Notes: generated by a model not told the origin, from the sequence alone. DNA of 64,000 bases from a virus (IMGVR_UViG_2541047715_000004), one strand, 5' to 3'; counted from the first letter of the stretch, positions 16,001-37,040 are shown. Translations and numbers: made by a program.

Positions 16001-16127
16001 CCTGAATCAGTTCACGTTCCAGGTCCGATTCGCTCTGGTAGCTGTCGCCTGTTTGCTCGGCTTTGATGTACTTATCAAGAACGATAAAGTTATTGGATTC
16101 AGCAATGGTGTGTGTCTGATGAGTCAT
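13011..16127 (-). CDS. hsdR: type I restriction enzyme R subunit, type IC (EcoR124-like)
   Basis: 1038 aa; Walker [13 protein letters not shown]-box FDECHRS, helicase motifs; N-terminus [20 protein letters not shown] matches my recollection of EcoR124 HsdR. Confidence 0.95.
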
Positions 16128-16248
16128 AGCGCATCCTTTGTGCCGTCTGGCAAGGGCCGGAAGGGCTTTAAGGGCGACTTCCGGCGTGTAAAAAATAGTC
16201 TCTATATAGACCGGATGTTAAGGTGATCCGGTCGGTAGCAATGGTCAA

Positions 16249-17496
16249 TTAGTTACTGATAGTTTCAGGTTTGGGAAAACTGAACAGTAAATCACGATAG
16301 TACTCGTATTGTTTCTGGCGCAACTCGATTTCACGCGGAAGACCTTCGGTGATGGAATTGGTCAAAGCATCAAATTTATCCAGTAATTTCACTATTTTTT
16401 GTTGTTCAACTAGCGATCTTTCAGGAGAATCAGGAAATGGTACTGGTATCATAAGTTTTCTTAAGTTATCATTATAAAGTCTTTTAATAGTTCCACCTTC
16501 AGATATTCCCCATTTTGCTATTTTATAGAAATAGAATAAATATTTATTTAAAACTATTTTTTCATTATTTTCAATCCAGACAATATTGCTATCCTGGAAA
16601 TATGATTCCCTACCATCAAATATAACAGTCCTGCCGATGGTCCCACTGGCAGAAATCAATACTTCGCCAACTTTAGGATAACTATATTTTTCTTTAAATT
16701 CATTAAATAGTTTTCTAGATATATAGGAATCGGGTTCCTTACCAAATGTCCCAATTTTATAAAATGGAATCTCTCCCTCAGAAGATGTTTGTGATTTTAG
16801 GATTCGTTTACACATACGAACTTCACCAATTTCCCCCAAAGCTTTCCACTCAACCTCACCCTCTTTAAAACTCAACAACTGGTCGCGATAGTAGTTGTAT
16901 TGTTTTTTACGCATGCTAAGCTCAGCGGTAAGCTCAGCGGTAAGTGCAGTAAATTTATCCAGAATCCTGACGATTTCAGACTGGATAGCCAGCGACTTTT
17001 CCGGGTTGTTGGGGCAAGGGATGGGGATAAGTAATTTACCTATATCTTTAGCATACAAATGATAAACAGTAGAACCTTTAACCATTTGCAATATCTTTTT
17101 TTTGTTATTTATTATGAAATTACTTAGATATCTACCATCAACACCAGAGCATCTAATAATCAAAATATCGCCGCCTAAAATAACGCCACTTTCTTGAATG
17201 CAACTAGCTGTAGCCAAACCTCTTGGTGTAACGTCTGACGTTGGCATTAGAACATCATTTTTTTCAGATAGAATTGACTCATTGATTGCTTGGTTTGTTT
17301 TTGAGCATACTTTGTCAATTATGGGACCATAATGAGTGAAAAGCTCACCGTAATGAATACAATATCTATTGCCATCTGGAGTTATTTTTTCTTTAGGTAA
17401 AGACTTCCCTTTTAAAAAAGTTGCTAATTTATTTAATGCTACCCACTCAACCTCAGCCCCATCCAGCAGTTTTTCCAGATAACTCAGCTCGCTCAT
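16249..17496 (-). CDS. hsdS: type I R-M specificity subunit, type IC with two divergent TRDs
   Basis: Conserved N-terminal, central ([29 protein letters not shown]) and C-terminal ([41 protein letters not shown]) regions; AT-rich variable TRDs. Confidence 0.95.
16918..16941 (-). repeat. 2 x 12-bp tandem repeat in hsdS central region, encoding TAEL-TAEL
   Basis: + strand AAGCTCAGCGGT twice, then a degenerate third copy. Confidence 0.85.
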
Positions 17497-19055
17497 GCCT
17501 GTACCTCGCTACCTTCAATCTCAGCAACAATCGCATCAATATCTTTACGCAACTGGTCGATTTTGCTGACCGTGGTTTTCAGCTCAGCATTCAGCTCAGC
17601 GATATCGATAATTTCGCGAGTATCTTTCGCTTCCACATAGCTGCTCACCGACAGGTTATAGTCATTCGCGACAACAGTCTCAAACGCAACAGATTTCGCC
17701 AGATGAGCAACATCTTCCTTGCTGGCAAATACCTGCATAATCTGTTCGATATGAGCATCGGTCAGAATGTTGTTGTTAGTCTCTTTTTTGAACAGTTCGC
17801 TGGCATCAATAAACTGAACTTTGGTATCCGTTTTATGTTTAGACAGCACCAGAATATTGACGGCAATAGTGGTGCCAAAGAACAGATTCGGTGCCAGTGA
17901 AATCACGGTTTCGACATAGTTATTGTCGACCAGATACTGACGGATTTTCTGCTCCGCGCCGCCACGGTAAAAAATGCCTGGGAAGCAGACAATCGCAGCG
18001 CGACCTTTGGCCGAAAGATAGTTCAGCGCATGTAATACAAACGCAAAGTCAGCTTTGGATTTGGGGGCCAGAACGCCAGCCGGGGCAAAACGTTCATCGT
18101 TAATCAGCGTCGGGTCATCGCTGCCAATCCATTTCACCGAATACGGCGGGTTAGAAACGATGGCATCAAACGGTTTTTCATCTCTGAAGTGCGGCTCAGT
18201 CAGTGTATTACCCAGCTTGATATCAAACTTGTCGTAGTTGATGTTGTGCAAAAACATGTTCATACGCGCCAGGTTATAGGTCGTATGGTTGATTTCCTGA
18301 CCAAAAAAACCTTCTTCGATGATATGGTCATCAAACTGTTTTTTCGCCTGCAACAACAGCGAACCGGAGCCTGCTGCCGGGTCGTAGATTTTGTTAACGT
18401 GGGTCTGCCCGTGCATAGCCAGTTGTGCAATCAGCTTAGAGACGTGCTGCGGTGTAAAGAACTCGCCGCCGGACTTACCGGCATTCGCCGCATAGTTAGA
18501 AATCAGGAACTCATAGGCGTCACCGAACAGGTCAATCTGATGTTCATGGAAGTCACCAAGTTTTAGCCCTTCAACCCCTTTCAGAACCGCAGCCAAGCGG
18601 GCATTTTTATCTTTAACGGTGTTACCCAGGCGGTTACTGGTGGTATCGAAATCAGCAAACAAACCTTTGATGTCAGCTTCTGAAGGATAACCGTAAGCAG
18701 AACTTTCGATAGCAACGAAGATGCTGTTTAAATCTGCATTCAGTCTGTCATTAGTATTTGCTTTCGCAGCTACGTTGCAGAAAAGCTGACTGGGGTAGAT
18801 GAAGTAGCCTTTAGTTTTGATGGCATCGTCTTTAATGTCATCAGTAATTACGCTGTCATCCAGTTTCGCATAACAGATACTGTCATCACCGGCTTCAATA
18901 TAACTGGAAAAATTTTCGCTGATAAAACGGTAAAAAAGCGCGCCCAAAACGTACTGCTTAAAATCCCATCCATCGACTGAACCCCTGACATCGTTAGCAA
19001 TTTGCCAGATCTGGCGATGAAGCTCTGCACGTTGTTGAATACTTGTCATTTTCAT
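17493..19055 (-). CDS. hsdM: type I R-M N6-adenine DNA methyltransferase subunit
   Basis: 520 aa; motif [14 protein letters not shown]; stop overlaps hsdS start (ATGA). Confidence 0.95.
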
Positions 19056-20158: not shown

Positions 20159-20184
20159 AGGCGGTGCAATGCACCGCCTTTTAT
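20159..20184. terminator. bidirectional terminator between convergent UmuD'-like gene and apbC
   Basis: AGGCGGTGCAATGCACCGCCT followed by TTTAT. Confidence 0.6.
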
Positions 20185-21284
20185 CACACTGCGCGGAATG
20201 CGATTTCGCCAGGTATTACTTCACCTTGCCAATACATTTGGGCGGCAACGCGATCTGCGAGGTCACGATAAATAGCCGTAAATTCGCTATCTGGACGACT
20301 AATAACGGTTGGTGTTCCGTTATCCAGATCTTCACGAAGAGAGATATGAAGTGGCATTTGGCCTAACAACTGCGTGTTGTATTTCTCGGCCAGTTTCTGT
20401 GCGCCACCGGTGCCAAAAATTGGCTCGTGATGACCGCAGTTACTGCAAATATGCACACTCATGTTTTCGACGATACCCAGTACCGGCACTTCGACTTTTT
20501 CGAACATCACAATGCCTTTCTTCGCATCGATCAGCGCGATGTCTTGCGGCGTAGTTACCACAACCGCACCAGTTACAGGAATGTTCTGCGCCAGCGTCAA
20601 CTGAATATCACCAGTGCCCGGCGGCATATCGAGAACGAGATAGTCCAGATCAGGCCATAGAGTTTCCTGCAACATCTGCATCAGCGCCTTGCTGGCCATC
20701 GGTCCACGCCACACCATTGCATTGTCGTCGGTGACCAGATAACCAATAGAGTTGGTTGCCAGGCCATGAGACATGATAGGTGCCATGTGAGTACCGTCAG
20801 GTGAGGTTGGACGTTGGTTTTCCGCGCCCAGCATGGTTGGAATTGATGGACCATAGATATCGGCATCCAAAATACCAACTTTCGCACCTTCAGCAGCCAA
20901 CGCCAGTGCCAGGTTTACCGCCGTGGAGGATTTACCCACGCCGCCCTTGCCTGAGCTGACGGCGATAATGTTCTTAACGCCATTAATGCCTGGTTGGTTT
21001 TTGACGCGCTTAAGCGTGGCAATGTTGTACGACAGCTTCCAGTCAATAGCCTTTGCGCCAGTGATACGGAGCAGATCACCACTACATTGCTCTTTCAGGT
21101 CTTCAAAAGGCTTATTCCACACGAAAGGCATGATTAGTTCGACATGCAGTGTGTCATCCATCAACGCAACATGGTGTAACGCTTTAAGCGTAGTCAGGTT
21201 GTGTTTCAGGGTTGGGTGCTGAAAATTAGCCAGCGTACCGGCTACCATTGCTCTCAGGGCATCCGGCGATTTGGACTCGCTCAT
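20184..21284 (-). CDS. apbC: Fe-S cluster carrier ATPase ApbC/Mrp
   Basis: 366 aa, GKGGVGKS P-loop; near-identical to E. coli Mrp as I recall it. Confidence 0.95.
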   Translation of the reverse strand: MSESKSPDALRAMVAGTLANFQHPTLKHNLTTLKALHHVALMDDTLHVELIMPFVWNKPFEDLKEQCSGDLLRITGAKAIDWKLSYNIATLKRVKNQPGINGVKNIIAVSSGKGGVGKSSTAVNLALALAAEGAKVGILDADIYGPSIPTMLGAENQRPTSPDGTHMAPIMSHGLATNSIGYLVTDDNAMVWRGPMASKALMQMLQETLWPDLDYLVLDMPPGTGDIQLTLAQNIPVTGAVVVTTPQDIALIDAKKGIVMFEKVEVPVLGIVENMSVHICSNCGHHEPIFGTGGAQKLAEKYNTQLLGQMPLHISLREDLDNGTPTVISRPDSEFTAIYRDLADRVAAQMYWQGEVIPGEIAFRAV

Positions 21285-21441
21285 CCCGTCTCCTTTATTT
21301 TAATTTGCGCAATTGTCGCCTTGTAGTGTACTCCAGCTACGACATTTAATCATTTATGAGAAATGCTGTTATCACATGGCAGACATAAGGCCATTTTGTT
21401 ACTATCAAGCCCCTTTTCACTACAAAGAAGTAATGCCTACT

Positions 21442-23475
21442 ATGACCCAAGTCGCGAAGAAAATTCTGGTGACGTGCGCGCTGCCGTACGCTAACGGCTC
21501 AATCCACCTCGGCCATATGCTGGAGCACATCCAGGCTGATGTCTGGGTTCGTTACCAGCGAATGCGCGGCCACGAGGTTAATTTCATCTGTGCCGACGAT
21601 GCCCACGGTACGCCGATCATGCTGAAAGCACAGCAGCTTGGTATCACACCGGAGCAGATGATTGGCGAAATGAGTCAGGAACACCAGACTGATTTCGCAG
21701 GCTTTAACATCAGCTATGACAACTATCACTCGACGCACAGCGAAGAGAACCGCCAGCTGTCTGAGCTTATCTATACTCGCCTGAAAGAGAACGGTTTTAT
21801 TAAAAACCGCACTATCTCTCAGTTGTACGACCCGGAAAAAGGCATGTTCCTGCCGGATCGTTTTGTGAAAGGCACCTGCCCGAAATGTAAAGCGCCAGAT
21901 CAATACGGCGATAACTGTGAAGTCTGCGGCGCAACATATAGCCCGACTGAATTGATCGAGCCGAAATCGGTGGTTTCTGGCGCTACCCCGGTAATGCGTG
22001 ATTCCGAACACTTCTTCTTTGATCTGCCTTCTTTCAGCGAAATGTTGCAGGCATGGACCCGCAGCGGCGCGTTGCAGGAGCAGGTGGCGAACAAAATGCA
22101 GGAATGGTTTGAATCCGGCCTGCAACAGTGGGATATCTCCCGAGATGCGCCTTACTTCGGTTTTGAAATTCCGAACGCGCCGGGCAAATATTTCTACGTC
22201 TGGCTGGACGCGCCGATTGGCTACATGGGTTCCTTCAAGAATCTGTGCGACAAACGCGGCGACACTACCAGCTTCGACGAATACTGGAAGAAAGACTCCA
22301 CCGCCGAGCTGTACCACTTCATCGGTAAAGATATCGTTTACTTCCACAGCCTGTTCTGGCCTGCCATGCTGGAAGGCAGCAACTTCCGCAAGCCGACCAA
22401 CCTGTTTGTTCACGGCTATGTGACGGTGAACGGCGCGAAGATGTCCAAGTCTCGCGGCACCTTTATTAAAGCCAGCACCTGGCTGAATCATTTTGACGCC
22501 GACAGCCTGCGTTACTACTACACTGCGAAACTCTCTTCGCGCATTGATGATATCGATCTCAACCTGGAAGATTTTGTTCAGCGCGTGAATGCCGATATCG
22601 TGAACAAAGTGGTTAACCTGGCCTCCCGTAATGCAGGTTTTATCAACAAACGTTTTGACGGCGTGCTGGCAAGCGAACTGGCTGACCCGCAACTGTACAA
22701 AACCTTCACTGATGCCGCTGAAGTGATTGGTGAAGCGTGGGAAAGCCGCGAATTTGGCAAAGCTATCCGTGAAATCATGTCACTGGCTGACCTGGCTAAC
22801 CGCTATGTTGATGAACAGGCTCCGTGGGTGGTGGCGAAGCAGGAAGGCCGCGATGCCGACCTGCAGGCGATTTGCTCTATGGGCATTAACCTGTTCCGCG
22901 TGCTGATGACGTACCTGAAACCGGTACTGCCGAAACTGACTGAACGTGCAGAAGCATTCCTGAATACAGAACTGACCTGGGATGGTATCCAGCAACCGCT
23001 GCTGGGCCATAAAGTGAATCCGTTCAAGGCACTGTATAACCGTATCGATATGAAACAGGTGGAAGCACTGGTGGAAGCATCCAAAGAAGAAGTGAAAGCC
23101 ACAGCTGCACAGGTAACTGGCCCACTGGCTGACGACCCGATTCAGGAAACCATCACCTTTGACGACTTCGCCAAAGTTGACCTGCGTGTGGCGCTGATTG
23201 AAAACGCGGAGTTTGTCGAAGGTTCTGACAAACTGCTGCGTCTGACACTGGATCTCGGTGGTGAAAAGCGTAATGTCTTCTCAGGCATCCGTTCTGCTTA
23301 TCCAGACCCACAGGCACTGATTGGTCGTCACACCATTATGGTGGCTAACCTGGCTCCGCGTAAAATGCGCTTCGGTATCTCCGAAGGCATGGTGATGGCT
23401 GCTGGCCCCGGCGGGAAAGATATCTTCCTGTTAAGCCCGGATGCTGGTGCTAAACCAGGCCACCAGGTTAAGTAA
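21442..23475 (+). CDS. metG: methionine--tRNA ligase
   Basis: 677 aa from ATG 21442; HLGH and KMSKS motifs; near-identical to E. coli MetG as I recall it; divergent from apbC as in E. coli. Confidence 0.95.
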
Positions 23476-24880: not shown

Positions 24881-25949
24881 CGGTTGTAACTTATTGATAA
24901 TGGCGGTCACAATTTGATTCTTTTCTATAAGAATCCGTTGATCGCCACTACTCCCCTACCATGCCCGCAATCACATCCTTAAATATCAATAAGTTATAGT
25001 TGTTTATACAATCAAGAAAACAACTGAATAACAGATCAACGAAACATCAACGCTTTCACCCGATTTGGTCTAAAAAATTGACGTTTTCACACATCACTGC
25101 TTATACCCGTAATTCTACACAGCAGACAGCGCCACAGCGTCCAATTTTCACCACAGACGACCCAACACACTACCAACAAAAACACATGCTCAAAATCGTT
25201 CCCGTTGCGTTACATAACCATATAAACAACTTATTTTCAGGCATAACAAAACAACTAAATAACACATATGCCATTCCCAAAACAACCAACCTCGTTATGG
25301 CAGGCTACCGAAAAGACCCACCTCTTCTTCCCAGGCTACCGGACAACCAACCTAACTTTCACAGGCAATCCGAAAACATTCATACGCGCGATACCCACGA
25401 CACGCCATTACCCAAACAGCGAAGAAACACCAGAATCACTGAAACCCCAACGAAGCCTGTAACCGCAAGGTTTCTCTCAATCCCAAAAGACACGAAGCAT
25501 AACAATCACGGGAAACGCCATTACCCAATACACGAATAACTACAAAAGCCTTTCACACACTCCAGACAAACAACTCAAACACAATAACGAAAGGAATCGC
25601 CCACCTGCCATTACTCCATACACGGAGAAGAACAATCACCAAAACGACGAGAACACCCCATAGAAGAACCACCGCAAAACTAACGAAACCACATACACCG
25701 ACAGAGAAAACAACACACCCAATTCACCAACAGAAATAGTCGCCGTATAGAACGTTCTGGAAGGAGTGAGCATTAACGCCTATAGAGAGGTTGAGACAGA
25801 TAAAACACGAAGAAAACACAACATGTATAGCGAAGAAGCCAGGTATGTATAAGTGGGGAGGGAAGGAGGGGTGTCGCCTCCTTTTTCGTATTTATTCAAC
25901 TCCTGATTTTATCCCCCGTAAAACCCCTACGGTCAGCCTTCGGTCCATA

Positions 25950-26085
25950 CAGGGAAAAGGTTGCATCCCGCTACAGAAACGGCTGGGTTGCCTTCGGGGA
26001 ACGGCTGGAGGTTTTCAGGGAAACGGTCGAGTTGCCTGTGTGGATTTCGGGAGAAGGCTCGATGCCGGTTCAGGAACGGTGGAGT
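25950..26085 (+). repeat. iteron-like direct repeats (consensus about GGGAAACGGCTGG), 5-6 copies at about 22-bp spacing
   Basis: cagggaaaaggttgc, cagaaacggctgg, cggggaacggctgg, cagggaaacggtcga, cgggagaaggctcga, caggaacggtgga. Confidence 0.6.
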
Positions 26086-26415
26086 ACCGGTATAGCGAGA
26101 GGGAGAGTTGCGGCTATCCACCTGTAATCTGCGGGAAGAAGAGTGGCGCTCACGTGCAGGCGGACTAACTTACCGTTGGACTCCCTCTGAATGCCCAGTT
26201 ACAGCGTAATTGTGCCAGACAGCCAACGGGTCACAATCGATTTCAGTAGGTTTTCGGGGAGATGATTATTCTGCCCACCAGCCACCTTCGGCCACTAAAT
26301 CAGAATAATGTAAAAAGTGTTCTCGGTACTGAACCTGAAAACTCACTGCCAAAACCACATTCACCGGAATAAAATCCTTTTTCGCCTGTGCGTTATTGCG
26401 ATAATAACACCATCA

Positions 26416-27877: not shown

Positions 27878-28252
27878 ATGGGACTTGATATCTATATCGA
27901 GACACAGCCTAAAAACGATCTGAATAACGAGGCATCCAGAAAGCAGGTTGCTTACTTCCGTAAGTTCAATGCGCTCGTTGGGTGGATGGAGCGCAACGTA
28001 GGTGAAGTCGAAAATTGTGAGCTTTTAGAATTAACGATGAATGACATTTGTTTTCTGAAGGCTCATTTGATGCACATAAACGAAAGCAATTGCGAAGAGT
28101 ACTTGCCTACCCGGGAAGGTTTTTTCTTCGGCAGTCAGGAGTACGATGAAGGTTACTGGCATGACGTGGATAAGCTGAAAAAACTTGTGGAAGACCTGAT
28201 CAGGAACCACGACTTTCACAATAACAGACTGACCTTCTGCGCCTGGTGGTAA
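27878..28252 (+). CDS. hypothetical protein
   Basis: ATG 27878 with AAGGAAACC RBS. Confidence 0.45.
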   Translation: MGLDIYIETQPKNDLNNEASRKQVAYFRKFNALVGWMERNVGEVENCELLELTMNDICFLKAHLMHINESNCEEYLPTREGFFFGSQEYDEGYWHDVDKLKKLVEDLIRNHDFHNNRLTFCAWW

Positions 28253-28567
28253 ATATGGGCGATTTCAAGAAACGCCTGAAGGAAAGAGCCGAGATGGTCA
28301 GAAAGCAAAACGCCTCTTCTGTCATCAGATACGCAAGGCAGTTTAGTCGCAACAACAAATCAGTTGAGGAAAAGATCCTTAGCGTAATCGTGCGATAATT
28401 ATTAAGGCCATCAGCATTGGTGGCCTTAAATGACCATCTTGTTTCCCGCAGGCTAAAAACACCAACCTCTTACCTCCAGGCAACCGACAAACCCACCTGT
28501 TCCCGTCCGGCTACCGCAACTTTCCACTTTGACGCCTTATTCGTACAACGATAATTAACGCCAACAA

Positions 28568-28581
28568 GAAAACAATTTGTT
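28568..28581 (+). promoter_or_regulatory. family 1 palindrome (GAAAACAATTTGTT)
   Basis: 22 bp upstream of ATG 28603. Confidence 0.45.
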
Positions 28582-28602
28582 ATTTACGATAAGGAATTAA
28601 TC

Positions 28603-29085
28603 ATGAATTTTATCGCTACTGTAAACGCACCCGCACATGGCAATATCGCTGTAACGTTCTCTGACATTGAAAAACGAGTACTTGGTGCATGGCGCGACAA
28701 TGAGACGGTAGAACTGTCAGCACAAGAAAAATGCATTATTGCACGCGACATCATTGGCAATCGTCGTTACTCGCGGGTATTTGAGAAAGCGTATGTGGTA
28801 AATTCTGGATTCGGAACGTTCGTCTTTCCGGTGCGCTCCGGGCGATTCTGCCAGTCCAAGCTGATTGAGTTCGCTACGCAGATTTCTGTCTGGATTAAAA
28901 CTCAATCGTCGTTCAAATTTTCCGACGATGAAGCAGTATCGCAGGGGATGCGGATCGCCAACAATGCGATTAAATGCAAAAACATTACGTATACCGCTGG
29001 CGTTGATACATGGAAACTGTTTTGCGCTAACTTTATGCTGAATGTATACGCAAGCAACCGCATCCACATCCTTGATGGCGTGTAA
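28603..29085 (+). CDS. hypothetical protein
   Basis: 160-aa ORF with AAGGAA RBS. Confidence 0.5.
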   Translation: MNFIATVNAPAHGNIAVTFSDIEKRVLGAWRDNETVELSAQEKCIIARDIIGNRRYSRVFEKAYVVNSGFGTFVFPVRSGRFCQSKLIEFATQISVWIKTQSSFKFSDDEAVSQGMRIANNAIKCKNITYTAGVDTWKLFCANFMLNVYASNRIHILDGV

Positions 29086-29093
29086 CTGAGAAG

Positions 29094-29117
29094 AGGGCCA
29101 GAAACGGCCCTTTCTCT
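29094..29117 (+). terminator. putative terminator
   Basis: GGGCCAGAAACGGCCC followed by TTTCTCT. Confidence 0.5.
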
Positions 29118-29133
29118 ATAGCCACCAGCTGCC

Positions 29134-29214
29134 GCAGGGAAATTTTCAGAAACGGCGAGGAACGTATTCATGAGCCGACGGGGAACGGCCAGGATTTTTT
29201 CGGGAAACGGCTGC
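29134..29214 (+). repeat. second iteron-like cluster (GGGAAACGG family)
   Basis: cagggaaatttt, cagaaacggcgagg, gaggaacgtattc, cggggaacggccagg, cgggaaacggctgc. Confidence 0.55.
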
Positions 29215-29701
29215 ATTCGCCTTTATGTAGAAAAAACATCGGGAAGCTGGTGGAATCCAACCAGCGGTTGTCGGACAGGTGAGCGGGGAAAATTATGATG
29301 ACTTTCGTCGCCTGAGACATCCAGATTTCTTTCGTAGCGTAATCACATATGTGATTAAGTGGTGTGATTATGTGAAAAATCACGCGCACATAATACGAGA
29401 GCGGATACGGAACAAAACAAAATGCCGATCCGCGCCGACAATTAAACGCGGATCACATAGCAAGAATAAAAGCCAATGATTAACCATACACCATAACGCA
29501 ATATAACGCGATTTAAGCGCGTTAATGCGCTAAGTAATGGGTATGTACTGGTAAGGATATAAAAGCGCGTCTATGGCGTTATTTTGGCGCTTATTTTTAT
29601 GTTGTTGGTGTGAGTCAAAGACAATAAAAAAAGCGCCATCATTGGCGCGTTATGGTGGAAGTATTGGAAACGAAAAAAGCGCCCATAGTGGGCGCTCGAT
29701 T

Positions 29702-29932
29702 TTATTTATGTAAACTGATTTCAAATCCCATTTCTACAAACGCTTTTAACATTAAAAATATATCAGCGTCATTCATGTCTGCTTTTTTTCGCTCCTGGTC
29801 GCTCAATAAGTCAATTTTGCGCGTCGTTTCATCTATAAGCTCGACTGCGCGCCCAGCGTAACCAGCGATCCCAGCGATGCGATTAACAAAATATTCATTA
29901 CGTACGTTAACGCCAGCGATAAGAATAAACAT
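29702..29932 (-). CDS. hypothetical small protein
   Basis: AAGGAG RBS; minus-strand terminator GCGCCCACTATGGGCGC plus T6 right after stop. Confidence 0.45.
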   Translation of the reverse strand: MFILIAGVNVRNEYFVNRIAGIAGYAGRAVELIDETTRKIDLLSDQERKKADMNDADIFLMLKAFVEMGFEISLHK

Positions 29933-29979
29933 GATTAAGCTCCTTAAAAGCGCCCATAGTGGGCGCAAGATTCCATTAA

Positions 29980-30630
29980 TTACGCTTTGAAAGCATCAGC
30001 CAGATAGTTATAGAAATCATTTTTAATGAAGCGATATTGCTGCGTACCAGCTTTTGCGCTTCCCATTCCTTTGACTTTCTCAACAAGTCCAAGACGTTCG
30101 CAAAGATTGATCAACTGGTTGGCTTGAGTATAGCCAGCGTCCAATTTAATTTCGCACGCTTTTTTAGCTTCATTCATTAAATCGAAAACAGCGCCATTGG
30201 TGAACGTGTCGATCTCGTCGTTAATCATATCGATTAAAGCGAATACACGAGATCCTGACATATCAGCGATGGAATAAACGCATTTACCAGCTTTAATTGA
30301 TTTAACCAGATAGACCAGTTTTTCCAGTGAATAACTATTAGTCATTGCATCACGGAAAAATACTTCTGGCGCTTGTTTACTTGCTTTGATCGCATAGTAG
30401 AAAACAGAGCATAATTTTTCGTCTTCTACTGCGTTCACAACGTTGTTGATGAAGTAAGCAAGTTTAGTGGTCGCAGCTTGCATGTTTGCTTTGTCTGCTT
30501 TTGTGTGCGTACCATTTTTATAATGTTCGTTATATGTTTGAGTTGCCAGATCTGCTTTTTCGCGCAGCTCGTCGGATACAATGGCAGCAGCTTCAATGAT
30601 GGATTTTTTAGAAATGATAATGTTAGCCAT
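29980..30630 (-). CDS. hypothetical protein
   Basis: 216-aa ORF followed by the same GCGCCCACTATGGGCGC hairpin. Confidence 0.5.
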   Translation of the reverse strand: MANIIISKKSIIEAAAIVSDELREKADLATQTYNEHYKNGTHTKADKANMQAATTKLAYFINNVVNAVEDEKLCSVFYYAIKASKQAPEVFFRDAMTNSYSLEKLVYLVKSIKAGKCVYSIADMSGSRVFALIDMINDEIDTFTNGAVFDLMNEAKKACEIKLDAGYTQANQLINLCERLGLVEKVKGMGSAKAGTQQYRFIKNDFYNYLADAFKA

Positions 30631-30927
30631 GATTTTATTCCTTAGTATAAATATTAAAATTTAACTCAAGAAAGAAAGTGTTTTGCACTCGTTCCTGATG
30701 CGTTCAATTATCGATACGCGAAAAAAGATTGCAAGTGTTTTTTTAAGTTTTTTTGCAGGGATGAAAGTCTTAGAAATAAAAGCGAGATCGTCGAAGGTGT
30801 TCCCTAAATAAATAATAAATTCCGGCTTTTGACCTTATATATTTATACGGGGGAGAATTGAATGAGTGTTAAACGAATGGCATGTAAAATAATAACCGGA
30901 CTTAGCCGGTTATTACCCTTATAGAAA

Positions 30928-31449
30928 TTAAAACGGAAGGATTCGTTCAACCCAATCGAAGAAAATAAGTATTTTTCTACCGTCTTCCAACTTAAGTGTG
31001 ACTAGACAGGCGTCAACGCCATCTGACGTTCCCTCAATTTCGCGACCGTCTGCCATGTAGACCCTTATAGATTTGCCGTTTTGGTAAGCCTGACGACATA
31101 TCTTAAAAAAGTCACGACGTGATGGCTGATTAACCATCTGTTCATTGTTTAGCGTTAGTCGACCTGTGAATGAAGTGTCAACCTCTTCTATGCCCGACTC
31201 AATTGTGCTAATGCGCTCAAGAGGGAGCCTTATACGATTTGTGTTGCTAAGCGGATCTGGTGTGAGGTTCAGCTTATTTCTTGCGCTCAATAGCCCGTAG
31301 ACATACATGCAAAACACTTGGCCGTCTTCGAGAGTGACTCTTACAGGAAATTTTGCACTCCGCCAGAAGAGCAAGGTGCGCTCAGCATGTTCGTAGTCTC
31401 GCGGCCAGACTTCAGCCGGTATGCCGTAGGTGATGTCCAATGTTCTCAT
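30928..31449 (-). CDS. hypothetical protein
   Basis: 173-aa ORF, overlaps upstream gene by 4 nt. Confidence 0.45.
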   Translation of the reverse strand: MRTLDITYGIPAEVWPRDYEHAERTLLFWRSAKFPVRVTLEDGQVFCMYVYGLLSARNKLNLTPDPLSNTNRIRLPLERISTIESGIEEVDTSFTGRLTLNNEQMVNQPSRRDFFKICRQAYQNGKSIRVYMADGREIEGTSDGVDACLVTLKLEDGRKILIFFDWVERILPF

Positions 31450-32039
31450 TCTGATACTCTTAGAGGTGTTTTCAGCAACCCAAATTTAAATTCTTTGTTA
31501 CCAACGACAAAGAAGGGAACCTCAACATAGATTTTTTTATCGACGGATTTAGAGTTAGCTGTTTTATGTATGTCACGAACGATACGTTTTGAGATATTTT
31601 CATCGATAAACAATACCTTTCCACTTGTATTCCCTTCAGCCTTGGCGTAAGTAACGATAGGCTCTTCATTGCCAACCCTAATGTTTACTTGGCAACCTGT
31701 TGTAGCCATTTCATCACAGTAAAGTGTGCCGTCTTGAACTTCCAAAACAATTCCAGATGGCTTCATGGCTTCGTCAGAGCTTACATTAACGTTTTCTGGT
31801 ACAGCGGTCCCGTTAATTTGCAACCGTAATCTTTCTTTTCCTGCATTAAGTATTGTTTCTTCTGCGTTATCTGAGAATCTGAACCAGACTGGTTGAATCA
31901 GACCTCGTGATTCGTATTTTAGTACGTCTTCAGAAGTATACATGCTGTACGTTTTTTGCATGTCGGAGACGATATCTGACAACGCATTTGCGGAAAATGA
32001 CGAGAGGTATATACAAGCAAGAAGTAACGAACGTTTCAT
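31446..32039 (-). CDS. hypothetical secreted protein
   Basis: N-terminal signal-peptide-like MKRSLLLACIYLSSFSANA. Confidence 0.5.
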   Translation of the reverse strand: MKRSLLLACIYLSSFSANALSDIVSDMQKTYSMYTSEDVLKYESRGLIQPVWFRFSDNAEETILNAGKERLRLQINGTAVPENVNVSSDEAMKPSGIVLEVQDGTLYCDEMATTGCQVNIRVGNEEPIVTYAKAEGNTSGKVLFIDENISKRIVRDIHKTANSKSVDKKIYVEVPFFVVGNKEFKFGLLKTPLRVSE

Positions 32040-32219
32040 TTTTATACAGCGATTATTGCAAAGTAGAATTATAAATATCCAATAGTCTCAAACGATAAGT
32101 TTTCAACTGTAAATAGCAGACGTGTTTCTCTAAAAGCTGTGCGGCAAAGGCGTTGTTGCCGCACTCTGTCTATTAGCTCTTCAAGTCTGGCAATTCTGAA
32201 ATTGACTAAGAATCCAATA

Positions 32220-32498
32220 TTACGGCAGTTTGCTTAGAATTTGCTCTAAATCTTCCTTTGTCATATTAGAGTTCTCATAGATGCGCATGATTTTCTCACG
32301 AGCCTTAGCAGAGACTCCAACGGCAGATGAAACTTTGTCAAATTCAGCCATTGTCATCGCTTCCAGAATGGTATTGATAACTTCAGCCTTAGACATTTTG
32401 ATGTTTTTTTCTTTTAGTTTCATTTGAAACTTTCCAAGTTTGTCATTGGCCTTATCGGACAATGCCACCTGACAATAAGTTGTTTTCTTTTCGCTCAT
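32220..32498 (-). CDS. hypothetical protein
   Basis: 92-aa ORF immediately downstream of helicase. Confidence 0.4.
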   Translation of the reverse strand: MSEKKTTYCQVALSDKANDKLGKFQMKLKEKNIKMSKAEVINTILEAMTMAEFDKVSSAVGVSAKAREKIMRIYENSNMTKEDLEQILSKLP

Positions 32499-32500
32499 AA

Positions 32501-34060
32501 CTAATCTCGTTTCAGAACTCCAAAATCGAATGCGCCATCAATAGGCAATACACCTTCTGCAAAGCCAGGTGTGGTGTCGATGATGTGTTTTCGCTCATAA
32601 GAGTGAGACAACAGGTATTTGTTGCTAATGTCAATGAAATCAGTGATAAAACACACGTTTGCCTGATTTTTTTTGGCTCGTAAGCCACGACCGACACGCT
32701 GTCTCATTTCAACTTCTGCTTTCCCACCACCAGCAAGAATGACCGCACCAACGCTTGGCACATCAACACCGACATCCAGAATAGTCGAGCCTATTAAAAC
32801 ATCTATTTCTCCAGACGCTAAACTGTTCAGCTTTGCTTGCCTTGTCGCCTGGTTAGATTCCCCATAGATGAAGTCAACTCTAAGGCCGGACTCTTTCATC
32901 ATTTCCATCAGGATTTGCCCGTGGCGTTTAAGACGAACCAGAGTCATACAATTGAGAGAATGTTGCTTATAGAGCAATGCTTCGCGAACAATGGCCTCGT
33001 TACGTCCCAAATTATACACGATCCCCAACTGATAAGCCTTTTGGTAGGCGGTGCTCATACCAACTCTAAAATTGAGGTGTTTGTTGGCAAGTTCGGCCTT
33101 GATTCTGGCCTCGTCTGGCTTGTAGGCAACTTTATGATAAAGGAAGTACGGCTTTGCCAGAATGCCTCGATCAATCAGGTACTTTTCTGTGACTTTAATT
33201 TCAATTCGCCCGGCCACCGCCATCAGGCGCATGTTGGCTTCCGTCGAATCCTTCATGAACGGCGTGGCTGTAAGCGCCAGACGATAGTCTGCGTTCACAC
33301 ATAATCTGGCGATGTCATAGAAATTTGAGCCTGAAGACTCATGCGCCTCTTCCAGAATAAGAAGAGAGACACTTGAAAGGAAGCGTTTCACCAACTCCCG
33401 ACGTTTGAGGTGGTAGCTCTTTTTATCTGGTGTTGCATCGCGTGGTGGTTCTTCGAGGAAACTTGCAAGAGTTTGAACTGTAGCGACGTTGATATGTCGT
33501 GATACCTGGAACTCACCCGAGCCAATGACTCCAACCTTTTGGTCTTTTAACCACGGTTCGCCATTTTCGGCGCGGTAGTCGATGGATCTCTGGAAGTTTT
33601 CGGCCATTTGAAACATCAGAACAGAGCGGGTTGTTAAAAATAATGTCATTCGACCGATACGTGCAGCTGCTTTGCAGGCAACATTAGATTTCCCGCCACC
33701 AGTAGCGATCTGCGCAATCATCATTCCCTCTCGAACCAGTGTTTCCACAGTCTGATCCTGATACGCATAATCAGGATTGTATGGGAATGGGTTAACCGCC
33801 GGATTTGGTTTTCCAAGCGCCGGGGCTTTGTCTTTGCGGATATGAACACATTTGATGCCCGCCTTGTTCAAGTTCGCCGCTACAGGCTTGGCAAAGCCAG
33901 CAGGGAACGAGTTTTTACTCCAGTTGAACATCGTGCTTGTGCCCTTCCAGTCGCCAGTCTCGACTTCGTAGCTCAACATTTGCTGCACCAGTTGCTTTAC
34001 CTTGTCATCTGCGCCAGAAATAAGCGCATTTACTGCGTTAGATACAATCCGAACAGTCAT
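32501..34060 (-). CDS. superfamily 2 (DEAD/DEAH-like) helicase
   Basis: Walker A ATGGGKS, motif II LEEAH, motif III TATP, motif VI QRVGRGLR. Confidence 0.75.
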   Translation of the reverse strand: MTVRIVSNAVNALISGADDKVKQLVQQMLSYEVETGDWKGTSTMFNWSKNSFPAGFAKPVAANLNKAGIKCVHIRKDKAPALGKPNPAVNPFPYNPDYAYQDQTVETLVREGMMIAQIATGGGKSNVACKAAARIGRMTLFLTTRSVLMFQMAENFQRSIDYRAENGEPWLKDQKVGVIGSGEFQVSRHINVATVQTLASFLEEPPRDATPDKKSYHLKRRELVKRFLSSVSLLILEEAHESSGSNFYDIARLCVNADYRLALTATPFMKDSTEANMRLMAVAGRIEIKVTEKYLIDRGILAKPYFLYHKVAYKPDEARIKAELANKHLNFRVGMSTAYQKAYQLGIVYNLGRNEAIVREALLYKQHSLNCMTLVRLKRHGQILMEMMKESGLRVDFIYGESNQATRQAKLNSLASGEIDVLIGSTILDVGVDVPSVGAVILAGGGKAEVEMRQRVGRGLRAKKNQANVCFITDFIDISNKYLLSHSYERKHIIDTTPGFAEGVLPIDGAFDFGVLKRD

Positions 34061-34142
34061 AAACCTCTTTCCTTAGTGCCTTTTGTATGTTATTTGGCTA
34101 TTATAATAAGTAAGTGATTACTTAGTGGATTGTAGCAATAAA

Positions 34143-34823
34143 ATGGATGTAAAAATCACGATTTTGCAGGTTGATGTTGCCAACCTTCGCCCGAATACCT
34201 GGAACACCAATTCGGTTGGTGCGCAGAATTTTGAAAAACTGAAAGGTTCTATCGAAAAATTGGGCTTTTTTAAGCCAATTTTGGCTCGTGAACTTGAAGA
34301 TGGATTTTTTGAAATCCTAGGCGGCGAACATCGCTGGCGTGCTGCTATTGAGCAAGGAATTTCAACGGTTCCGGTGCTTTCTGTGGGCAAAATTAGCGAT
34401 GTCGTAGCTAAACAGATGTCACTGGTGGACAACGAGCGATACGGTGAAGACGACCAAATCGCATTGCAACGCTTCATTGAAGAAATTCAGTCAGAACTTG
34501 ACTATCAACTGTCTGAAATCGCCCCGTATGACGACGAAATCTCGATGGTTTTAGCAAAAGAGGCGGCAATCGACCTTGAAGCACTGGAGGCGTTGTCTCG
34601 TGGTAGTGATGAGCCTGTCGATACCGACAAACGAGAGAAAACCGAACGTGTGGGGGCGGAACATCAGACCATGCGCTTCAAAGTAACTTTCGATGCGTCA
34701 GATCGTGTTGCAGAAACCATAAAAAACATCATCAAAGAGCAGGCTATTAACACCGGTAATGAAATGGAGAACGCTGGTGAGGCTCTGGTGTGGCTGGTCG
34801 ACTACTACAAGGAGCGTATGTAA
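34143..34823 (+). CDS. ParB/Srx-like N-terminal domain protein
   Basis: ILGGEHRWRAA box; start set to ATG 34143 (track start is GTG 34125). Confidence 0.6.
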   Translation: MDVKITILQVDVANLRPNTWNTNSVGAQNFEKLKGSIEKLGFFKPILARELEDGFFEILGGEHRWRAAIEQGISTVPVLSVGKISDVVAKQMSLVDNERYGEDDQIALQRFIEEIQSELDYQLSEIAPYDDEISMVLAKEAAIDLEALEALSRGSDEPVDTDKREKTERVGAEHQTMRFKVTFDASDRVAETIKNIIKEQAINTGNEMENAGEALVWLVDYYKERM

Positions 34824-35491
34824 TGACCAAAAAGTTTGAAATCGTATATCGCGACCCGGCAGATCTTATTCCCTATGAGATGAATGCCAAAAAGCATGAT
34901 GAACAGCAGATCCGAGATCTGGCCGCAGCCATTAAAAAGCGCGGATTTGACCAGCCAATTACGGTCGATAAGAACGACGTAATTATTACTGGCCACGGCC
35001 GCCGTGAGGCTGCAATTTTTGCTGGACTTGAGCGCGTGCCGGTTATTGTTCGCGATGATCTGAGTGATGACGAGGTACGTGCAAAGCGCCTTGAAGATAA
35101 CCGACTTGCCAGCATTGATTACGATGCAATTAAGCTACAGAAAGAGCTTGAGTCGCTTGTTCTGGACGATATCGAGGTTTTCGGCTTCGAAGAGCGTGAG
35201 TTGAATGTTCTCGTTGGCAGTATGACAGAAGAAATGGACACCGACTCGCTAGTTATCGATCTTGGCGAAGAAACTAAACGACAGAAGGATGAACACACCG
35301 AGATCAGTCGTGAAGTTGCAGCGGAAGAAGTACGTGTTGTCGACGTATTGGGCTTTAAAACGCTCCCTGCTGGCTCTGCCATTGTTGTTGGTGATTTGCT
35401 TGCCCATATGGAAGAAATGACGGGAGAAAGCGGGGTAGACGCATTTGTGGCATATGCGGAGAAGATCTCTTCCGGGGAGATGGCTGCATGA
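34823..35491 (+). CDS. ParB/Srx-like N-terminal domain protein (second copy)
   Basis: ITGHGRREAA box; TAATG overlap with upstream gene. Confidence 0.6.
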   Translation: MTKKFEIVYRDPADLIPYEMNAKKHDEQQIRDLAAAIKKRGFDQPITVDKNDVIITGHGRREAAIFAGLERVPVIVRDDLSDDEVRAKRLEDNRLASIDYDAIKLQKELESLVLDDIEVFGFEERELNVLVGSMTEEMDTDSLVIDLGEETKRQKDEHTEISREVAAEEVRVVDVLGFKTLPAGSAIVVGDLLAHMEEMTGESGVDAFVAYAEKISSGEMAA

Positions 35492-36153
35492 GCAAATACA
35501 TCATCAACGTATCGTTTCAGACACGCGTAAATAAAACCACGCGCACGTTGGAAATCGCTGAGTCGTTCGGGCTTGGCCTGGACGAAAAAGAGTGGACGCT
35601 TTACGACAATCTGGAGCTGGAAGTGAAGCAGGGCGATGTGGTGTACATCACCGGCCAATCCGGTTCCGGCAAATCCGTTGTGCTGCGCGAGTTGCAACGA
35701 CAGATGAAGGATGAAGGGCTGTCTGTAGCCTCCATCGATGATTTTACCTTCGATAATGAGGTTAACGTCATCGATCAGTTGGGCAAAACGACCAGTGATG
35801 CGCTTGGGTTGTTATCTATGGCTGGTCTGAACGATGCATATCTGTTTGTTCGCAAGCCTTCTGAAATGTCAGACGGCCAGAAATATCGTCTCAAGATTGC
35901 CAAACTGATTGAGTCAGGCGCTAAAGTATGGGCTGCTGACGAGTTCGGCGCTGTTCTCGACCGTGTAACCGCTCAGGTTGTGGCGTCTAACCTCCAGCGT
36001 GCCGCTCGAAAGGTTGGTGCGACGGTAATGGTGGCGACGACTCACGAAGACCTGAAGAACGCGCTGCGCCCTGATATGCAGATCACCAAGCACTACAAAG
36101 AACGCGTGAAGGTGGAATATCACAATGGTAGTCATGATGAGGTCCATTCATGA
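35488..36153 (+). CDS. ABC-type ATPase without transmembrane domain
   Basis: Walker A GQSGSGKS, signature-like SDGQKYRL, Walker B VWAADEFGAVLD; ATGA overlap. Confidence 0.6.
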   Translation: MSKYIINVSFQTRVNKTTRTLEIAESFGLGLDEKEWTLYDNLELEVKQGDVVYITGQSGSGKSVVLRELQRQMKDEGLSVASIDDFTFDNEVNVIDQLGKTTSDALGLLSMAGLNDAYLFVRKPSEMSDGQKYRLKIAKLIESGAKVWAADEFGAVLDRVTAQVVASNLQRAARKVGATVMVATTHEDLKNALRPDMQITKHYKERVKVEYHNGSHDEVHS

Positions 36154-37040
36154 CGGACATCATCATTAAACGCTACCGCCCTGAAGAGTTTCCGCGTCAT
36201 CTGGACTTTCTGGAGCGAATGACTGTTACAAAGGGAACTGTAGAGGACTGGCACGCTCTTAAATCGCTTCACTACAAAACAGACGGCAAACCTTTCGCGC
36301 CAACATACTATCGCTGCGAACTGGATGACCGTCTGGTGGGCGTCGTGGTTATGGCTTACCCGAAACTTCTGCTGGCACCTCGCCATCGCATGTTTCCTAA
36401 GTTGAAACCAACTACCAATACCACCGTGGCTAACCAGTACTGGGGTCGGTACGTGAATAACAACTTTGCGGTGATCAGCCGCTCAGTTGTGGATACTCAG
36501 TACCGTGGCGTAGGCGTCTCTTATCGAATGATTAACCTGGTTAGCAGGATGCATGACCGGCCAATCATTGAGATCCAGTCATCGATGAGCAAATACAATC
36601 CCTTCGCCATGAAAGCAGGGTTTAAGTTCATCCGCCCTGAGCGACCGAAGAGCTATGAAAGTGCACTGCGTGTATTCCAGCGCCATTTCCGTTCCGACCC
36701 GGGTGATAACGAGGCGATCGTCAAAGAGTTGTTCGCAATGAGCGAGTCTCGTCGTCGCCGTGCACTGCGTGATCTGGTGGCGGACTACCACAAGAACAGT
36801 TCCCTGGCAAAAGCTGGGCGGAATCGTGGCACGACGATTCAGGACATTGCCGACAGTCTGGTGGACGAGGCCAGCATTGTGAAGCTGCTCAAGGACATTC
36901 ACAACCTGAGCTTTACGTCTCCGTTGTATGGTGTGTACCGAAACCCTGACTTTGGCCGTCGACTGCCTGACACGCTGCCACTGCTGGCATTCGACAAACA
37001 ACCTTTGGATAAACCGTTAGAAATTGCTTTACCGGCATAA
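36150..37040 (+). CDS. hypothetical protein with possible GNAT acyltransferase motif
   Basis: VISRSVVDTQYRGVGVSYRMINLV resembles GNAT motif A; ATGA overlap with ATPase gene. Confidence 0.4.
   Translation: MTDIIIKRYRPEEFPRHLDFLERMTVTKGTVEDWHALKSLHYKTDGKPFAPTYYRCELDDRLVGVVVMAYPKLLLAPRHRMFPKLKPTTNTTVANQYWGRYVNNNFAVISRSVVDTQYRGVGVSYRMINLVSRMHDRPIIEIQSSMSKYNPFAMKAGFKFIRPERPKSYESALRVFQRHFRSDPGDNEAIVKELFAMSESRRRRALRDLVADYHKNSSLAKAGRNRGTTIQDIADSLVDEASIVKLLKDIHNLSFTSPLYGVYRNPDFGRRLPDTLPLLAFDKQPLDKPLEIALPA

Follow-up and report, generated by a model that had tools for sequence, protein, structure and literature searches.

A minus-strand gene block in an SSU5-like Escherichia phage-plasmid: a probable backbone segment with a cargo slot beside a fljA-like gene

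We analyzed a 64,000-nt stretch of viral DNA (IMGVR_UViG_2541047715_000004; its full length is called the window below) and describe here the six genes that lie on its minus strand at 29702-34060. By megablast and PLSDB matches, the window is an Escherichia SSU5-like phage-plasmid, a member of the SSU5 supergroup of phage-plasmids (Pfeifer et al., 2021; PMC7969092). For the region 29000-35000, megablast found sequences of 94-97% identity in three Escherichia phages (CMS-2020a, PhiR41_1, and Cyrano), while the identity to Salmonella phage SSU5 was 80%. A PLSDB search with 29600-34200 retrieved 780 plasmids, the top one being plasmid A of E. coli D4 (NZ_CP010144.1; 99.7% identity over the full length), and further matches included pMT1 of Y. 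pestis and plasmids of Enterobacter, Salmonella, and Klebsiella with sizes of 100-115 kb. SSU5-like phage-plasmids are among the commonest extrachromosomal elements in clinical Enterobacteriaceae, with the block present on 780-835 PLSDB records, and to our knowledge the control of their lysogeny and maintenance is essentially unstudied.

Read from right to left, the genes encode a superfamily 2 (SF2) DNA helicase, the small protein p92, the exported protein p197, a FljA-family protein, p216, and p76 (Table 1). The anatomy reported by the first-pass annotation of the window held up well. All six open reading frames (ORFs) were confirmed, and each product matched a conserved PHROGs family with an E value of 1e-38 to 1e-139. 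The terminator hairpin GCGCCCACTATGGGCGC is indeed present twice, the 82-bp divergent region adjoining the ParB operon contains a palindrome, and the product annotated as a secreted protein has a typical Sec signal peptide, which is kept in its homologues.

Table 1. Genes and predicted signals of the block, with positions in the window (aa, amino acids).
Feature	Position	Strand	Description
Intrinsic terminator T1, 3' of p76	29679..29695	-	9-bp stem including flanks, U6 tail, -15.5 kcal/mol, z -4.16
p76 (phrog_1585)	29702..29932	-	76 aa; small conserved protein in terminator-flanked small-gene array
Terminator repeat T2, 3' of p216	29950..29966	-	7-bp stem, U4 tail; p76 Shine-Dalgarno sequence directly next
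p216	29980..30630	-	216 aa; backbone protein
p216 upstream region	30631..30885	-	Promoter-like site 30734-30707; 17-nt direct repeats 30668-30684 and 30725-30741
Terminator hairpin 3' of fljA-like gene	30886..30919	-	14-bp stem, U-rich tail, -15.3 kcal/mol, z -3.65
FljA-family protein (PF03614, 'repressor of phase-1 flagellin')	30928..31449	-	173 aa
Variable cargo slot	31438..32215		Homology to close relatives lost; holds hairpin, promoter-like site, and 197-aa gene
p197 exported protein (phrog_18942)	31446..32039	-	197 aa; Sec signal peptide, Cys108/Cys116 conserved
Promoter-like site 5' of p197	32052..32081	-	TGGATA-18-AATAAT, extended TG; consensus match only
G+C-rich hairpin between p92 stop and p197 promoter	32139..32164		Inside cassette; weak U tail on minus strand
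p92 (phrog_1466)	32220..32498	-	92 aa; directly downstream of helicase
SF2 DNA helicase (phrog_16)	32501..34060	-	519 aa; ResIII/DEAD + Helicase_C
Divergent control region, helicase/ParB-like operon	34061..34142		Self-complementary ATTATAAT at 34100-34107; palindrome AAGTAAGTGATTACTT at 34108-34123

The first-pass annotation had also called the block a minus-strand island, or inverted block, inside an otherwise plus-strand genome. For the comparison of gene order, 62 further IMG/VR loci were fetched by the FljA-like protein, and eight window proteins were mapped on 70 loci in all. The order parB2-parB1 / helicase-p92-(slot)-fljA-(gap)-p216-(small genes) was invariant: all six anchors occurred in the same order in 51 of the 70 loci, the other 19 were cut by contig ends, and no rearrangement was seen in any locus. 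The same genes, order, orientation, and divergence from the ParB-like genes were found in the annotated elements Cyrano (CYRAN_112-118), SSU5 (SSU5_119-124), PhiR41_1, pHCM2, E. coli D4 plasmid A, and pMT1, and in an Enterobacter and a K. pneumoniae plasmid. A common orientation in all relatives had been named beforehand as the finding that would refute an island, and the synteny comparison gave exactly that. The window is not otherwise confined to the plus strand either, because hsdR/S/M (13011-19055) and apbC (20184-21284) are on the minus strand as well. Since position and orientation were the same in all relatives examined, the block is not an island, nor has it been inverted. We consider it likely that it is a regular part of the SSU5-supergroup backbone, always oriented in the same way and made up of separately terminated transcription units with three indel-prone junctions. 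As such it is ordinary, has been sequenced many times, and is already annotated; what the analysis contributes is a transcription-unit map, one real cargo slot, two minor indel sites, and the typing of the helicase. For annotating or engineering SSU5-like elements, this means that the segment is to be treated as backbone, in which the p92/fljA slot is the sole real cargo site and minor indels occur between fljA and p216 and 3' of p216.

All backbone genes were under purifying selection, as judged by the ratio of nonsynonymous to synonymous substitution rates (dN/dS; throughout, Nei-Gojobori estimates from codon alignments). The helicase (0.02-0.03) was among the most constrained genes of the block, the ratios for p92, ParB1, and p216 were 0.03-0.08, 0.04-0.05, and 0.05-0.07, respectively, and the fljA-like gene (0.09-0.12) was the least constrained backbone gene. 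These ratios indicate that all backbone genes for which they were estimated are functional. Between the window and SSU5, protein identity was 92% for the helicase, 84% for p216, 69% for the FljA-like protein, and 61% for p92. A decayed copy of the entire block (parB-like, helicase, p92, p197-like, fljA-like, p216, and p76) was also found in an E. coli chromosome (CP125919.1, 385158-397682; locus L071). In this copy, the helicase, p216, and parB2 matches were split in several pieces, which suggests frameshifts, and the locus appears to be the remnant of an integrated phage-plasmid.

The variable part of the block is the slot between p92 and the fljA-like gene. Pairwise blastn against the closest relatives placed the homology break at 31437/32216, with homology resuming at 32234-32250 in two relatives, so that one edge of the slot lies 12 nt within the 5' end of the fljA-like gene and the other close to the stop codon of p92. 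Among the 68 loci with both flanks, the slot was 100-2928 bp in length and was empty in six. Its ORFs formed 14 clusters, which include at least eight plausible unrelated gene families; the remaining clusters are probably antisense or chance reading frames. The families comprise a lipoprotein of about 140 aa that belongs to phrog_890 and was encoded on either strand (35 loci), the secreted protein of 197 aa (17 loci), a protein of 179-199 aa (16 loci), a lipoprotein of 259-266 aa encoded on the opposite strand (10 loci), proteins of 162, 191, and 124 aa, and a 377-aa HNH nuclease. While the window carries the 197-aa protein, SSU5 and pMT1 have the lipoprotein of about 140 aa, and Cyrano has a 199-aa protein together with an oppositely oriented 266-aa lipoprotein. 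Because its content varies at a fixed site between otherwise collinear relatives, the slot is a moron-like cargo hot spot. In three loci (L018, L058, and L070), it encodes a protein of 190-377 aa that ends in an HNH nuclease motif and for which a defence or homing function is possible.

Like known phage morons and cargo hot spots (lom and bor of lambda, Llp of T5, and Cor of phi80), the slot is a short insertion site between conserved genes. The likeness extends to a content that varies among near-identical genomes and consists mostly of envelope proteins, and it may extend to the promoter-like and hairpin elements, both of them consensus matches only, and to expression from the lysogen, as seen for the slot gene of one relative. 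On the other hand, the slot products have no homology to any characterized moron product and are not known to confer exclusion, and the backbone fljA-like gene downstream appears to share a transcript with the cargo and to be coupled to it in translation. In the window, the ATG of the fljA-like gene overlaps the p197 stop codon (ATGA at 31446-31449), and the two proteins are therefore probably co-translated.

The signal peptide of p197 could be read directly off the sequence: it consists of a positively charged n-region (MKR), a hydrophobic core (SLLLACIYLSSFS), and an AxA cleavage motif (ANA) followed by L, with the predicted cleavage site lying between MKRSLLLACIYLSSFSANA and LSD. The signal pattern and the Cys pair were kept in homologues down to 46% identity and also in a remote 208-aa relative. 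The family is represented by 15 clusters among 5.8 billion sequences, and an exhaustive profile search of 1.84 billion representatives yielded eight matches, of which one, the 208-aa exported protein, was remote and full-length. On plasmids, p197 was found in 65 cases, compared with 835 for the fljA-like gene. Judged by these searches, p197 is a narrow orphan family.

The other two junctions lie downstream. The gap between fljA and p216 is the second indel-prone site and ranged from 291 to 2056 bp across relatives. The third is the terminator-flanked array 3' of p216. In the plus-strand reading, the hairpin GCGCCCATAGTGGGCGC has exactly two copies in the whole window, against a chance expectation of 0.14 at up to 3 mismatches. 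T2 is a 35-nt direct repeat of T1 with 86% identity, and T1 is also terminator-like when read on the plus strand. With a tail of just four U's and the p76 ribosome-binding site directly behind it, T2 may terminate transcription only in part. A terminator copy was present 3' of p216 in 59 of the 61 loci analyzed, and at least two copies were present in 52; the array between the copies contains p76 and/or a 67-aa coiled-coil protein, the window having only p76 and SSU5 the 67-aa gene. The 35-nt repeats are an obvious recombination substrate for gene gain and loss. The start codon of p76 is the ATG at 29932, in agreement with the annotation of relatives, and not the TTG at 29968. Its neighbor p216 was found in SSU5-like phage-plasmids only, and the structural model of this protein consists of an N-terminal helical bundle and a C-terminal winged-helix-like domain. 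At the other end of the block, both the length of the divergent region and the palindrome arms TAAGTA/TACTTA were kept in nearly all loci. In Klebsiella-type loci (L041 and L052-L054), an (AGTA)n tract beside the conserved palindrome had 2-5 copies among otherwise near-identical elements, which looks like slipped-strand variation in the promoter region. An Rfam scan of 28000-35500 gave no match.

The helicase contains ResIII (1.1e-14, residues 99-268), DEAD (2.7e-14), and Helicase_C (4.9e-13, residues 364-462) domains, and its N-terminal 98 residues matched nothing. Its closest solved structures were Sulfolobus XPBII (2.2e-12), RecG (3.1e-8), and T4 UvsW (2oca; 5.5e-8, over the C-terminal half only). 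Helicases of 30-40% identity were found by tblastn in Rhizobium, SPO1-like, and Staphylococcus K-like phages, and the homologues in Herelleviridae, SPO1-like, and Rhizobium phages carry the annotation DNA helicase. From these profiles, the enzyme is best described as an XPB/RecG/UvsW-like DNA helicase of the generic SF2 type found in phages; the name UvsW, given in the Cyrano annotation, is not specifically supported, as UvsW was no closer than XPB or RecG. Of the two types between which the first-pass annotation had left the choice, UvsW/RecG-like and Res-subunit-like, the latter is not supported. Its further alternative, a replication-helicase module or an accessory cassette, is divided between parts of the block: the helicase family does occur in the DNA-replication modules of large lytic phages, and the term accessory applies to the secreted-protein gene in the variable slot but not to the whole block. 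The ResIII/DEAD and Helicase_C core is common to the window helicase, the phage SF2 helicases (T4 UvsW, the Herelleviridae/SPO1-type enzymes, and phrog_16), and archaeal XPB, whereas the window type differs from these phage enzymes in that its gene, carried by a temperate element, is transcribed during lysogeny.

Two assignments of the helicase were rejected. A type III restriction Res subunit does not fit a 519-aa protein that has no nuclease domain and no Mod partner, since neither p92 nor the ParB-like proteins encoded beside it contain a methyltransferase domain. A Pbe or Dnd defence helicase was rejected because only the SF2 core was matched (PbeA, model positions 253-635 of 672, E 6.6e-23; dnd_restrict_1, 59.6 bits against a cut-off of 600). 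None of the other five proteins matched a PADLOC model. The co-transcribed p92 is conserved at 41-100% identity. It has no Pfam relative, and a profile search against PDB sequences returned only designed helical repeats; the only hint came from phrog_4268, 'transcriptional repressor' (E 5.5e-4). A role as a regulator is conjectural, and so is a ribbon-helix-helix fold, which was guessed from the sequence pattern and for which there was neither a Pfam match nor a PDB relative.

Expression of the block was read from published, re-analyzed RNA-seq data for the Cyrano lysogen of E. coli LF82 (Table 1 and S1 Table of PMC9928086). Values are given as log2(fpkm+5), where fpkm is fragments per kilobase per million and the floor is 2.32, for lysogeny broth (LB) and for cell-culture medium and macrophages at 1 h and 6 h each. 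The highest-expressed gene of the block was CYRAN_117, the p92 gene, which in LB reached 12 times the local background (PMC9928086); its values were 6.3-7.2 in LB and 8.6-9.9 in medium and macrophages. The corresponding values were 5.0-5.9 and 7.2-8.4 for the helicase, 4.2 and 6.9-8.1 for the FljA-like protein, and 4.7-5.0 and 7.9-9.4 for the slot lipoprotein CYRAN_115. In LB, p216 was at 2.3-2.8 and both p76 and ParB1 were at the floor, rising in medium and macrophages to about 5.6, up to 4.9, and up to 5.2, respectively (PMC9928086). Because no Cyrano particles were detected in macrophages (PMC9928086), these transcripts represent the lysogen state, and the values therefore assign helicase-p92, the slot gene, and the fljA-like gene to the plasmid-state program. 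The genes on the other side of the divergent region (34143-37040; CYRAN_119-122) encode two ParB_N-domain proteins and two ABC-type ATPases and lie upstream of the terminase. The ParB_N-domain proteins resemble the N-terminal domains of ParB-methyltransferase fusions. This operon is at or near the expression floor in the Cyrano lysogen and behaves in the manner of a lytic operon; it is unlikely to be the partition system, and its proteins are probably lytic or packaging-associated.

These data point to the following organization. The helicase-p92 operon is transcribed to the left, starting in the 82-bp region that it has in common with the ParB-like/terminase operon. Its helicase would remodel branched DNA such as forks, R-loops, and recombination intermediates during replication of the element, and the small co-transcribed p92 is a suspected regulator. 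The slot that follows, whose products differ between relatives and are mostly exported, as lipoproteins or secreted proteins, here provides p197 behind a promoter-like site. By homology, the FljA-family protein would be an mRNA-binding post-transcriptional repressor, possibly directed at host fliC in motile hosts and/or at a phage-plasmid transcript. Finally, p216 and p76, with one terminator copy behind each of them, are almost silent in lysogens.

Several points weigh against this organization. Expression of the helicase in the plasmid state fits maintenance as well as lytic replication. No similarity of p92 to any solved DNA-binding protein was detectable, and the palindrome arms did not co-vary with p92 alleles across clades; arm conservation irrespective of the p92 allele is neutral in this respect and neither supports nor excludes p92 as the binder. 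The AlphaFold2 model of p197, built on a 10-sequence alignment, had a predicted local distance difference test (pLDDT) score of 51, too poor for a fold search, which leaves the cargo without a structural clue. Cyrano is an imperfect expression proxy because its slot content differs and its fljA allele is only 74% identical; lysogenic expression of a slot gene is known for CYRAN_115, a different occupant from p197. What was observed is the anatomy of the block, its conservation and variability, the family assignments of its products, and their expression in one close relative; every biochemical role of the six proteins is our inference from these.

The match of the FljA homologue to PF03614 scored 230.5 bits (cut-off 24; E 1.4e-68) and aligned residues 5-170 with positions 1-170 of the 170-position profile, and the protein also matched phrog_1444, 'transcriptional repressor' (E 1.1e-89). 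Like FljA of Salmonella enterica, a post-transcriptional fliC repressor of flagellar phase variation, it is a single-domain protein of the same length that covers the whole profile, and in both cases fljA stands second in an operon of two genes, behind the gene for an exported product. In contrast to the Salmonella gene, the window copy is located on a phage-plasmid and has neither an upstream flagellin gene nor a hin-type invertible promoter, and genes of its type are conserved in elements of non-flagellated hosts. No flagellin gene adjoins it: the upstream gene encodes the 197-aa secreted protein, or in relatives a lipoprotein, and none of the slot families is flagellin-like. Chromosomal Salmonella FljA was not returned by a word-indexed search for homologues, which can find only sequences that have exact words of 5 residues in common; its absence suggests distance but is not a measure of it. 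In PLSDB, Klebsiella pneumoniae NZ_CP145150.1 and NZ_CP057316.1 encode FljA-like proteins only 34-38% identical to that of the window, and in these elements the FljA family is therefore far more diverse than the neighboring backbone genes.

One explanation of these features is that the fljA-like gene and its upstream exported partner form a lysogenic-conversion module, in which FljA binds the host fliC mRNA leader and stops flagellin synthesis; lysogens would then save energy, evade TLR5, or block flagellotropic phages. We regard this as possible but doubtful. It agrees with full-length membership in the FljA family and with the annotation of the pHCM2 copy as 'repressor of fliC' (P0154), with the order of an exported protein followed by FljA as in fljB-fljA, and with transcription of the Cyrano gene in lysogens, where its level in cell-culture medium and macrophages is about 8-16 times that in LB. 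The unusual allele diversity in E. coli, where fljA alleles are 64-100% identical beside 98-99% identical helicases, also speaks for it. On the other hand, intact copies were found on 345 plasmids of Klebsiella and 62 of Y. pestis, and these hosts are non-flagellated or non-motile. Purifying selection persists in the Klebsiella-type clade (identical to K. pneumoniae AR_0117), where dN/dS is about 0.1-0.15. Conversely, E. coli LF82 with Cyrano and S. Typhi CT18 with pHCM2 are motile and flagellated despite the gene. The window contains no element resembling the fliC 5' untranslated region, the best match being 12 nt (E 0.35), which is at chance level. In the literature searched on fljA in SSU5, pHCM2, and phage-plasmids, there was no functional study and no report of a motility effect.

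A conserved orphan FljA homologue is thus unlikely to be a flagellin repressor only. Because it is kept in non-flagellated Klebsiella hosts, is on in lysogens under host-like conditions, and is coupled to a swappable exported-protein gene, we tentatively suggest, while considering it somewhat unlikely, that the FljA-family protein is more than a stray flagellin repressor and serves the largest supergroup of phage-plasmids as a core regulator at the post-transcriptional level. If so, PF03614 proteins would have RNA targets besides fliC, either phage-plasmid mRNA or the mRNA of another host surface protein, and the pair of exported cargo and FljA would be a surface-remodeling switch analogous to fljBA.

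A second alternative concerns the cargo itself. The slot proteins, p197 here and lipoproteins elsewhere, could be superinfection-exclusion factors that mask or block the receptor to which virions of the same element bind; Llp of T5 and Cor of phi80 and HK022 are examples of such factors. In favor of this, most slot occupants are exported or lipidated, the slot differs between otherwise near-identical elements, and the Cyrano slot lipoprotein is expressed in lysogens. We nevertheless find this explanation unlikely, as the slot proteins resemble no known exclusion protein in sequence, the slot is empty in some elements, and no co-variation was seen between its content and a candidate receptor-binding region, the C-terminal 299 aa of the J-like tail-tip protein. 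In this co-variation test, which among the fibre genes was confined to the J-like tail-tip C-terminus, 132 plasmids agreed in the 299-aa region at 95% identity or more, and some of them have quite different slots (LF82/Cyrano, CP080149, and MH257954).

It is less probable still that the helicase-p92 operon is a plasmid-state replication or maintenance module, with the helicase being needed for theta replication from the nearby iteron region rather than for lytic recombination or repair. The operon is universally conserved, lies about 4-8 kb from the iteron-like repeats at 25.0-26.0 kb and 29.1-29.2 kb, and is active in lysogens (helicase about 5 times background, p92 12 times). However, SF2 enzymes of the XPB/RecG/UvsW kind are not replicative fork helicases, IncFIB-type iteron plasmids normally recruit host DnaB, and homologues of the helicase are found in the replication modules of strictly lytic phages. 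Lastly, that the whole block is an inserted or inverted accessory island for moron, exclusion, or defence functions, such as a Pbe, Dnd, or type III restriction helicase system, is highly improbable, because the helicase matches to PADLOC PbeA (E 6.6e-23), dnd_restrict_1 (2.8e-16), and Pfam ResIII, the low G+C content at 30-31 kb (0.368), and the individually terminated transcription units are set against an identical position and orientation in all relatives across five genera, matches limited to the generic SF2 core and far under the family cut-offs (59.6 against 600 bits), the lack of PADLOC matches for the other five proteins and of any Mod, Dnd, or Pbe partner gene, a helicase length of 519 aa that leaves no room for a nuclease domain, and a helicase dN/dS of 0.02-0.03.

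Several features outside the block are worth recording. A complete type I restriction-modification system is encoded on the minus strand at 13011-19055 (hsdR, 1038 aa; hsdS, 415 aa; hsdM, 520 aa) and is defence cargo of the phage-plasmid. At 20184-23475, apbC/mrp (366 aa, minus strand) and a full-length methionyl-tRNA synthetase gene, metG (720 aa, plus strand), form a divergent, chromosomal-looking pair within a patch of higher G+C content (0.49-0.53). The pair is present on 248 PLSDB plasmids, nearly all of them Escherichia/Shigella SSU5-like elements, and a second methionyl-tRNA synthetase carried by a plasmid is unusual. The palindromic motif AGAAAACAAnTTGTT is repeated at 26415, 26900, 27805, and 28567, 5' of successive small plus-strand genes, and looks like a common operator or promoter element. 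Finally, the regions 25000-26030 and 29100-29210 show a strong strand-composition anomaly (GC skew -0.28, AT skew +0.35), with tandem repeats of about 30 nt at 25279-25375 and GGGAAACGG-type repeats at 25990-26026 and again at 29174-29210; the repeats of the two regions are iteron-like sites on either side of the small-gene region.

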